Of a stretch of 16,660 bases of DNA, positions 2,456 through 3,865 are shown one piece after another. The notes below the pieces were generated by a model. That model did not search any database. It had not been told where the DNA came from and saw only the letters and a list, made by a program, of their open reading frames with translations. Each line of letters opens with the position of its first letter. The first letter of the stretch is position 1. Position numbers and translations under genes: made by a program. Source of the DNA: a virus (taxonomy: Duplodnaviria; Heunggongvirae; Uroviricota; Caudoviricetes); IMG/VR virus record IMGVR_UViG_2728369188_000006, positions 1 to 16,660 of that record. One strand, given 5' to 3'.

Positions 2456-3532
2456 ATGGCAGGTAAAGTTACGGAAACCGCTGTTGTGGGTGGCGTGGAT
2501 ACACATAAAGATCTGCACGTTGCCGCTGTCGTAGATCAGAACAATAAAGTTCTGGGGACCCAGTTTTTCTCCACAATACGGCAAGGTTACCGGCAGATGC
2601 TGGCATGGATGACTTCGTTTGGGGCATTAAAGCGAATTGGTGTTGAGTGTACTGGCACCTATGGATCAGGTCTGCTTCGCTATTTACAGAATGCCGGGTT
2701 AGACGTTCTTGAGGTGACTGCGCCAGATCGGATGGAGCGACGCAAACGGGGTAAAAGTGACACGATTGATGCTGAATGTGCCGCTCACGCCGCATTCTCC
2801 CGAATAAGAACCGTCACACCCAAAACGCGCAATGGCATGATTGAGTCTCTGCGGGTATTAAAAACTTGCCGAAAAACAGCAATATCAGCCCGCAGAGTCG
2901 CTCTCCAGATTATCCATTCCAATATTATCTCTGCCCCGGATGAATTACGTGAACAGCTCAGAAATATGACGCGCATGCAGCTCATCAGGACTCTGGGATC
3001 CTGGCGGCCTGATGCCAGTGAATACCGCAATGTTACCAACGTTTATCGTATTTCATTAAAGTCCCTTGCCCGACGCTATCTCGAGTTACATGACGAAATC
3101 GCTGATTTGGATGTCATGATTGCGGCAATTGTCGATGAGCTGGCGCCTGAACTGATTAAACGTAATGCTATTGGATACGAAAGCGCTTCGCAGTTGCTGA
3201 TCACGGCAGGAGACAATCCCCAACGATTAAGATCAGAATCAGGTTTTGCGGCACTGTGTGGTGTCAGCCCTGTTCCCGTATCTTCAGGAAAAACGAATCG
3301 TTATCGACTTAACCGGGGTGGAGATCGTGCTGCAAATAGTGCACTTCACATCATTGCCATCGGACGTTTGCGAACTGACGATAAAACGAAGGAATATGTC
3401 GCCAGACGAGTAGCGGAAGGGCATACAAAAATGGAAGCAATACGCTGCCTGAAGCGCTATATCTCACGCGAAGTTTATACATTACTGCGTAATCAAAACA
3501 GGCAGCTCAACAGCATCCCGATAACGGCTTGA
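2456..3532 (+). CDS. IS110-family transposase/recombinase (N-terminal RuvC-like DEDD domain, C-terminal Transposase_20-like domain), 358 aa
   Basis: The N-terminus VGGVDTHKDLHVAAVVD is the IS110-type DEDD motif 1. The C-terminal ...FAALCGVSPVPVSSGKTNRYRLNRGGDRAANSALH... matches the conserved IS110-family C-terminal domain pattern. This is not IS621 itself on my recollection of that sequence. Confidence 0.85.
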   Translation: MAGKVTETAVVGGVDTHKDLHVAAVVDQNNKVLGTQFFSTIRQGYRQMLAWMTSFGALKRIGVECTGTYGSGLLRYLQNAGLDVLEVTAPDRMERRKRGKSDTIDAECAAHAAFSRIRTVTPKTRNGMIESLRVLKTCRKTAISARRVALQIIHSNIISAPDELREQLRNMTRMQLIRTLGSWRPDASEYRNVTNVYRISLKSLARRYLELHDEIADLDVMIAAIVDELAPELIKRNAIGYESASQLLITAGDNPQRLRSESGFAALCGVSPVPVSSGKTNRYRLNRGGDRAANSALHIIAIGRLRTDDKTKEYVARRVAEGHTKMEAIRCLKRYISREVYTLLRNQNRQLNSIPITA

Positions 3533-3865
3533 CTCTTAGAAGGGCGTCCAGGGCAGCCACTATACAAGCAGGCAGTTCCGGCAGTTACTGTGGCGTTACC
3601 AGATCAAACAGAGTCTGAGTCGACGAGGAAATTGCTGGGATAACAGCCCGATGGAGCGCTTCTTCAGGAGTCTGAAAAACGAGTGGATACCGGTGACGGG
3701 TTACATGAACTTCAGCGATGCTGCCCATGAAATAACGGACTATATCGTTGGGTATTACAACGCGCTCAGGCCGCACGAATATAACGGTGGGTTGCCACCA
3801 AATGAATCGGAAAACCGATACTGGAAAAACTCTAAAGCGGTGGCCAGTTTTTGTTGACCACTACA

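Follow-up and report, generated by a model that had tools for sequence, protein, structure and literature searches.

An ISEc21 copy within an IS3-family transposase gene

The window analysed here, a stretch of 16,660 nt, carries on its plus strand a 1374-bp insertion sequence, ISEc21, which belongs to the IS110 group of the IS110 family and occupies positions 2175 to 3548. Both flanks of the element encode pieces of an IS3-family integrase-core transposase. The features of the locus are as follows.

1248-2174, plus strand: left part of the host IS3-family element (orfA and the 5′ part of orfB), co-oriented with ISEc21 and the likely source of read-through
2175-3548, plus strand: ISEc21, placed by empty-site comparison, annotated matches at 100% and near-identity to the copy of Siddiquee et al.
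2444-2449, plus strand: ribosome-binding site AGGAGC, ahead of the recombinase ATG at 2456
2456-3532, plus strand: recombinase gene, 358 amino acids, stop TGA at 3530-3532, with DEDD_Tnp_IS110 and Transposase_20 domains
3549-3865, plus strand: right part of the host IS3-family element (3′ part of orfB)

Membership in ISEc21 and in the IS110 family follows both from near-identity to a named element and from the domains of the recombinase. The 358-residue product matches Pfam families PF01548 (the N-terminal DEDD RuvC-like domain, E = 1.7e-19) and PF02371 (the C-terminal Transposase_20 domain, E = 2.2e-12). Hundreds of E. coli records match ISEc21 over most of its length, many of them at 100%, and among the 100% matches listed the annotation reads 'IS110-like element ISEc21 family transposase' and the element occurs at up to seven places per genome. 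The copy described by Siddiquee et al. (LT903847.1, 1802057-1803430; our locus L214) is identical at 1370 of 1374 positions; the four that differ are IS positions 403, 479, 627 and 1332. The two copies agree throughout the first 402 bp and the final 42 bp, segments that include the whole left non-coding region and both of the promoter halves considered below.

The ends at 2175 and 3548, which the preliminary description had proposed while naming their misplacement as grounds for abandoning its reading, are upheld by three independent lines of evidence: an empty site, the literature, and the pairing of a guide RNA. When the flanks at 2025-2174 and 3549-3698 are joined, they align without gaps to an uninterrupted IS3 copy (L001) at 299 of 300 positions. 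The bases that would have to agree for a shift are unequal on both sides (T2174 against C3548, A2175 against C3549), which leaves no room for moving the insert by one base; it spans exactly 2175-3548 and has no duplicated base. The 'native target' given by Siddiquee et al., CACAGCGATCAGGG, corresponds exactly to 2166-2174 plus 3549-3553 and is written CACAGCGAT|CAGGG across the insertion point. The left end encodes a guide RNA complementary to C3548 plus AGTAA (2175-2179), and in relatives the two sides of this pairing covary. A duplicated 'core' such as the CT of IS621 was considered for this site and is impossible, the flank and end bases being different on both sides. The uninterrupted IS3 copy is plasmid-borne and adjoins ehxCA; the ISEc21 copy in the window is chromosomal and lies inside a degenerate IS3 within a defective lambdoid prophage.

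Most relatives are inserted at CAYNNNGAY|MRNGG within an IS3-family orfB, and ISEc21 has been reported to insert in one orientation and without duplication, at the codons that surround the second D in the DDE motif of IS3 (PMC11187229). The empty-site comparison and the target sites of relatives together display the behavior expected of the IS110 family, namely sequence-specific insertion with no target-site duplication. In every relative examined the left flank codes for H-S-D (or similar) on the strand of the recombinase gene, and the host IS3 gene is therefore always co-oriented with the element. The gene upstream of the host IS3 in the window lies on the opposite strand, which leaves the IS3's own promoter as the only obvious source of read-through.

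A sigma-70-like site assembled by joining the ends

The preliminary description had proposed that circularization of the element would assemble a near-consensus sigma-70 promoter across the junction of its right and left ends. It had located TTGACT at 3529-3534, overlapping the recombinase stop codon and followed by 14 nt to the element end, and a left end beginning AGTAATAAT at 2175-2183. These coordinates are exact, and the parts of the proposed junction are the following.

3529-3534, plus strand: -35 half, TTGACT, which encloses the recombinase stop TGA (3530-3532)
3535-3548, plus strand: right-end part of the spacer, 14 nt, CTTAGAAGGGCGTC, also the left donor half-site; AGAAGGGC within it recurs in the guide RNA at 2369-2376
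2175-2177, plus strand: left-end part of the spacer, AGT, which with C3548 and 2178-2179 forms the right donor half-site CAGTAA
2178-2183, plus strand: -10 half, AATAAT; the alternative register TAATAA is 2177-2182
2154-2160, plus strand: would-be -35 position of the integrated state, GGGGTA or GGGTAA, with no resemblance to a -35

The right-end/left-end junction of the circle would read GAAGGGCGTC|AGTAATAATGCC. For the scan, 3489-3548 was joined to 2175-2234 and scored by promoter-tool criteria. The joined ends give one site, TTGACT-N17-AATAAT, which matches the consensus at 10 of 12 positions and has A at -11 and T at -7. The -35 and -10 thus lie in opposite ends of the element, face the recombinase gene, and stand at a distance within the usual range of 16 to 18 nt. 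A spacer of 16-17 nt followed by TAATAA(T) had been proposed; the 17-nt AATAAT register stands, and the 16-nt alternative, TTGACT-N16-TAATAA, is poorer and lacks the T at -7. AATAAT with a 17-nt spacer is the better -10 register because it alone keeps both A at -11 and T at -7, and because it is conserved in relatives. When window sequence was joined at random 200,000 times, the join was spanned by a site of 10/12 or better with P = 0.0022 and by one of 9/12 or better with P = 0.018. Across both strands of the whole 16.66-kb window there are only three sites of at least 10/12.

The integrated state offers no equivalent promoter. No site of at least 8/12 spans either the left or the right integrated junction in the junction scan, and no sigma-70-like site of at least 9/12 occurs on the plus strand between 1200 and 3853. 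A relaxed scan of the integrated state returned only weak, non-conserved candidates at 8/12, for example GTAATA-N17-TATCAT at 2176-2204, a stretch that is variable in the alignment of relatives. The left flank has GGGGTA at 2154-2159, in agreement with the GGGGTA-like sequence that had been described at the integrated -35 position. The accompanying prediction, low expression unless the element excises, holds in so far as no promoter is found at the integrated junction; it needs amending in that excision itself requires recombinase and guide RNA, which in IS621 come from read-through (PMC13626964).

Conservation of the two halves across Proteobacteria

Relatives were drawn from three sources: plasmid records at 92%, 73% and 66% DNA identity, Logan contigs, and 80 loci in species-representative genomes with 68-98% protein identity, the last ranging over Enterobacterales, Vibrio, Halomonadaceae, Burkholderiales, Rhizobiales and Rhodobacterales. 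Once duplicates had been removed, along with three ends that were called wrongly, the set comprised 58 distinct right-end/left-end pairs, which come from gamma-, beta- and alphaproteobacteria. The search patterns fixed left-end positions 1-5 (including A5, which is promoter position -11) and the last 11 nt of the right end. Conservation of these positions is not counted in favor of a promoter because they are both fixed by the pattern and constrained as donor site. Right-end positions -21 to -16, numbered from the element end, lie outside the search pattern.

At those positions CTTGAC is present in 57 to 58 of the 58 relatives, a single one having T as the last base of the motif, and its distance from the right end is 14 nt throughout. 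The C at -21, which adjoins the -35 hexamer, is as invariant as the rest. The last base of the hexamer, right-end position -15, is A in 35 relatives, T in 17, C in five and G in one, giving TTGACA or TTGACT in 52 of 58. The first T of the -35 is the four-fold-degenerate third base of the codon that precedes TGA; this codon is ACT, GCT, CCT or TCT, such that the amino acid varies while the third base is T in all 58. In the Amaricoccus copies and in L073 the reading frame continues through TTGACT and stops at a TAG inside TTAGAAGG, and the hexamer is still 14 nt from the end. What is new here is that this stop-codon-embedded -35, its synonymous site included, is conserved across Proteobacteria at a constant distance from the right end.

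The left half is conserved as well, with more variation. Positions 4-9 of the left end read AAKAAT in relatives, with A7 in 56 of 58, A8 in 45 and T9 (promoter position -7) in 51; A at -11 is found in 58 of 58, a position preset by the search pattern. The T usual at -12 is absent from the -10 of every relative. Promoter criteria were passed by 46 of the 58 junctions, all with a 17-nt spacer and 45 of them at 9/12 or better. The 12 junctions that failed, alphaproteobacterial elements among them, keep a perfect TTGACA and have -10 regions such as AAGACT, AAGAGT and CAGAAG. The guide RNA pairs with the left end through position 5 and sometimes position 6, and reaches position 7 in only one of 57 relatives. 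Positions 7-9 are therefore conserved without guide pairing, and their conservation needs another explanation.

The left-end guide RNA and a predicted transcript

A scan of 1500-4200 against Rfam at a permissive threshold matched no family, and the left-end RNA was therefore characterized by comparative folding. Alignment and folding of 32 left ends with MAFFT and RNAalifold gave a conserved structure of 49 pairs, 27 of them with compensatory changes. Mapped to the window, it comprises four parts.

2190-2245, plus strand: 5′ stem-loop, a conserved fold whose first paired base is A2190
2246-2337, plus strand: target-binding stem and internal loop, carrying CACAGCGATC (2276-2285) and CTGCCCTG (2299-2306)
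2338-2350, plus strand: small hairpin, from the same MAFFT/RNAalifold structure
2357-2410, plus strand: donor-binding stem-loop, with AGAAGGGCC at 2369-2377 and GTTACTG at 2392-2398

The long non-coding left end thus encodes a structured guide RNA whose loops match target and donor, a further property of the IS110 group. In the target-binding loop, the segment at 2276-2285 equals the top strand of the target at 2166-2174 plus C3549, and that at 2299-2306 is the reverse complement of 3549-3556, the right half of the target. In the donor-binding loop, the eight bases at 2369-2376 are identical to 3538-3545, and TTACTG (2393-2398; UUACUG in the RNA) is the reverse complement of C3548 plus AGTAA (2175-2179). 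Relatives whose left end starts AGTCA rather than AGTAA have TGACTG in the RNA, and in 56 of 57 relatives left-end position 4 stays paired, in six of them through a compensatory change. In 38 of 48 relatives at least seven of the nine left-guide positions match the left flank actually present, and the left guide tracks changes in target codons, for example AGC versus TCN codons for serine. This is the bridge or seek RNA architecture described for IS621 and ISEc21 (PMC11187229, PMC11208160).

The fold also bears on where transcription from a joined junction would begin. A2190 is left-end position 16 and lies exactly 7 nt past the last base of AATAAT. Transcription usually starts 7 nt after the -10. 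From this spacing we predict a start at about 2190, where the conserved 5′ stem of the guide RNA begins, and the coincidence supports both the 17-nt register and a start near that position. No terminator-like site occurs on the plus strand between the guide RNA and the recombinase ATG at 2456, and one transcript could therefore carry both the guide RNA and the recombinase mRNA, as has already been proposed (PMC11187229).

Alternative explanations for the conserved ends

The alternative that survives best holds that the hexamers are kept for recombination, TTGAC as a recombinase or guide contact combined with the stop codon and AGTAAT as the donor half-site, with the likeness to a promoter being incidental. 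In its favor, left-end positions 1-5, and perhaps 6, pair and covary with the guide RNA, the last 11 nt of the right end recur in that RNA, and the invariance of the right end extends to the C just outside the hexamer. However, an ISEc21 mini-element with only 16 bp of the right end, which retains only the last two bases of the hexamer, still transposes (PMC11187229). The -35 is therefore dispensable for recombination, and the main alternative reason for its conservation is gone. The synonymous T that precedes TGA in every relative, the unchanged distance of the hexamer where it does not serve as a stop codon, the conservation of left-end positions 7-9 beyond the reach of the guide, and the spacing of exactly 17 in all 46 passing junctions also argue against recombination as the sole constraint, and we consider it improbable that the promoter likeness is incidental.

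It is more improbable still that the right-end -35 serves mainly as an outward half-promoter, which would pair with a fortuitous -10 in the flank and activate downstream genes while the element is integrated. Insertion sequences are known to activate neighboring genes through outward -35 elements in their ends. Against this, no site of at least 8/12 spans the integrated right junction, and insertion occurs almost only at one conserved IS3-family site, where the flank, CAGGGCAGCC, has no -10. Chance resemblance in AT-rich terminal sequence has a negligible probability, for although consensus scans yield many false positives and 9/12 sites span about 1.8% of random joins, the 10/12 match at a probability of about 0.002 is beyond chance, its recurrence with fixed spacing in dozens of diverged relatives makes chance untenable and effectively refutes it, and a junction promoter is documented for ISEc21 and for the IS110 family (PMC11187229, PMC11208160).

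Assembled sequence data were also searched for joined ends. A contiguous right-end/left-end junction, queried by BLAST as a 140-nt join, is absent from 5,426 complete E. coli genomes; the only match of full coverage is an internally deleted copy of 409 bp and not a junction. JGI metagenome contigs gave no match to a degenerate junction pattern of 29 nt. An 18-nt pattern, for which chance matches were roughly estimated in the hundreds, gave 121 matches in metagenome and viral scans, five with a real right end and none continuing into a left end. Public contigs of about 1.4 kb that hold relatives were considered as circles and rejected, being repeat-collapsed sequences whose assembly stops at the element ends and whose own ends do not overlap. 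Three loci with left-end-like sequence after the right end (L072, L074 and L076) were likewise rejected as tandem dimers, their flanks being unlike either the element or the recombinase. Circles are transient, and these negatives in assembled data therefore do not bear on the model.

A probable split junction promoter and its proposed cycle

The feature is very probably a junction promoter (Pjunc) split between the ends of ISEc21, an element of the IS110 family that is guided by RNA. In the chromosome 1.35 kb separate the two halves, and their order is wrong for a promoter: the -10 is at the left end, upstream of the guide-RNA region and recombinase gene, and the -35 is at the right end, where it encloses the recombinase stop. 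With no usable promoter ahead of the left end, the integrated copy should be expressed weakly, most likely by read-through from the interrupted IS3 gene, by analogy with IS621. In that element, read-through from upstream supplies recombinase and guide RNA for excision, no excision occurs once a terminator is placed upstream of the left end, and the junction promoter is rebuilt when the element excises (PMC13626964).

Excision of ISEc21 by recombinase and guide RNA abuts the ends, as published for this element (PMC11187229), and creates TTGACT-N17-AATAAT. Transcription of the circle would presumably start near A2190, pass through the guide RNA (2190 to about 2410) and run on into the recombinase gene, and may thereby boost both recombinase and guide RNA for the insertion step. 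Insertion into the next IS3 target would then cut the promoter within its spacer and switch it off. The crossover falls inside the spacer, with 14 nt separating it from the -35 and 3 nt from the -10, and every insertion would therefore dismantle the promoter. A promoter active only in the circle would explain how an IS that is near-silent in the chromosome nonetheless produces a burst of recombinase and guide RNA for reinsertion, and is relevant both to IS110 and bridge-RNA biology and to the engineering of these recombinases.

A further reading, which we regard as unlikely and offer as speculation, would make ISEc21-type elements parasites dedicated to IS3-family transposase genes, with a switch wired to the host element. 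Basal expression would then come only from IS3 transcription, including that from the strong junction promoter of IS3-family circles, and an active host IS3 would trigger seamless excision of ISEc21, the DDE codon of the IS3 being restored exactly because there is no duplication. The same reading includes competition at the junction. The donor site of the guide RNA, made up of 3538-3548 and 2175-2179, falls within the Pjunc spacer and reaches into the -10 by two bases. RNA polymerase might therefore compete for the junction with the complex of recombinase and RNA, which would give the circle a built-in negative feedback.

Relation to known junction promoters

The junction promoter of ISEc21 is already known, having been published for the same element in 2024 (PMC11187229). 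Outward PCR and sequencing in that study detected an ISEc21 circle with directly abutted ends, whose formation needs the left non-coding region, and the report (Siddiquee et al. 2024, Nat Commun 15:5235) marks -35 and -10 motifs on the junction sequence (PMC11187229). Target, abutted ends, absence of duplication and marked motifs are as in the window, which holds another chromosomal copy with no structural difference. Promoter strength, transcription start and family-wide conservation do not form part of that report (PMC11187229), and our literature search found no published measurement of the strength or start site of the ISEc21 junction promoter. Confirming Pjunc element by element is meaningful; for ISEc21 this has been done, and the window therefore adds nothing new in principle. 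The additions made here are modest: the family-wide conservation of the -35, and a predicted start that coincides with the first base of the guide-RNA stem.

Pjunc has been described for IS492, IS621, ISEc11, ISPpu10 and ISEc21 itself. A close parallel is IS621, in which a sigma-70 promoter across the right-end/left-end junction drives the bridge RNA, as seen by RNA-seq (Durrant et al. 2024, PMC11208160). As predicted for ISEc21, IS621 has its -35 in the right end, its -10 in the left end and the crossover inside the promoter (PMC11208160; Nature 2026, PMC13626964), its transcript begins with the 5′ stem-loop of the guide RNA, and its integrated copy depends on read-through. The two differ in recombinase length (315-330 residues reported for the IS621 branch (PMC11187229), 358 in ISEc21), in the CT core dinucleotide that IS621 has in both donor and target whereas the ISEc21 site has no shared or duplicated core base, and in target, which is REP elements for IS621 and IS3 coding sequence for ISEc21.

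Activity has been measured in other members of the family. A hybrid promoter with measured activity is reported for the minicircle of ISEc11 (IS1111 group; Prosseda et al. 2006, as cited in later work), and ISPpu10 has a strong hybrid promoter measured with a reporter (PMC12288879). A hybrid promoter assembled at the element junction, as in these two, is what we predict for ISEc21; ISEc11 differs in having its guide RNA downstream of the recombinase gene. The preliminary description had treated a junction promoter as a known property of IS110-family circles, which the literature on ISEc21 and IS621 bears out (PMC11187229, PMC11208160) and ISPpu9 qualifies. ISPpu9 belongs to the IS110 family and forms minicircles as ISEc21 does, but its junctions have no hybrid promoter and it relies on a native one (PMC12288879). 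The feature is therefore not universal in the family and has to be checked element by element. Circles and tandem dimers of the IS3, IS21 and IS30 families, such as those of IS911, share with the proposed ISEc21 cycle a strong promoter that exists only in the transposition intermediate; these elements encode unrelated DDE transposases and have inverted-repeat ends and target duplications, whereas ISEc21 encodes an RNA-guided DEDD/serine recombinase.

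Genomic setting of the insertion

The window lies within a defective lambdoid (DLP12-like) prophage, and across its first 14.1 kb it is 99.98% identical to the genome of E. coli FDAARGOS_536. The gene content of the prophage is as follows.

Prophage genes in the window
1-16660: intE (frameshifted), an excisionase gene, replication genes, ybcN, ninE, ybcO and rusA
1-16660, further: ylcG, quuD, an ompC-type porin gene, essD and a truncated host-specificity J gene
5737-9645: inverse autotransporter gene, 1302 aa

The inverse autotransporter gene contains a tandem repeat of approximately 355 bp, the two units of which (7041-7394 and 7397-7751) are about 97% identical to each other.

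The IS3-family copy interrupted by ISEc21 (1248-2174 and 3549-3865) is itself degenerate. A G-to-A change has created a TAG stop at 2130-2132, with the ISEc21 insertion 42 nt downstream; comparison with an intact copy reveals gaps, and RefSeq annotates the gene as frameshifted. The IS3 in which ISEc21 resides is therefore dead.

Internal deletion and right-end variation

Another IS3 copy, on plasmid NZ_CP028195.1, carries an ISEc21 reduced by internal deletion to 409 bp (locus L002, 3001-3409). This derivative keeps the entire guide-RNA region and both promoter halves, but nearly the whole recombinase gene is gone; mobilisation in trans is therefore conceivable in principle. Among the complete E. 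coli genomes just one contains the deletion junction, and the 409-bp form has therefore not spread.

The relatives in Amaricoccus and an alphaproteobacterial MAG (L058-L062 and L073) vary at the right end, where the recombinase frame passes through TTGACT and stops at a TAG inside the terminal TTAGAAGGGCGTC, which lengthens the protein by a few residues. Despite this later stop, the -35 hexamer is unaltered and lies as far from the element end as in the other copies. In a decayed relative on the Salmonella Infantis plasmid CP074342.1 (L007), a copy with no annotated gene, the left end is missing its first ~120 bp. The right-end sequence there is TTGCTCCTGGAATGGCGTC, so that the -35 has decayed along with the donor site.

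Crossover point and unusual target sites

At the crossover (2174/2175 and 3548/3549) the donor GCGTC|AGTAA and the target GCGAT|CAGGG have zero bases in common, whereas IS621 has a CT core at this position. The stagger of strand exchange in the ISEc21 subgroup is not obvious from sequence.

In Neopusillimonas and Pusillimonas (L072, L074 and L076; element at L072 606-1972) the relative is inserted outside any IS3 gene, at a site that imitates the right-end|left-end junction of the element itself, GTAGAAGGGGTC|AGTAAAAGAATG; the left flank of a further copy, L040, is likewise junction-like. This site may represent a donor-like secondary target. A tandem dimer was ruled out for these three loci, because neither the element nor its recombinase has any similarity to the flanking sequences.

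In several copies the right flank starts with AG or AGT instead of the usual CARGG, for example agttgctg, agtaagttgg and agtccagggc. These copies are L003/L014, a 92% variant common on Klebsiella plasmids, as well as L004, L019, L064 and L083. In L083 the right flank resembles a normal target half preceded by 4 nt (AGTC) from the start of the element's own left end.
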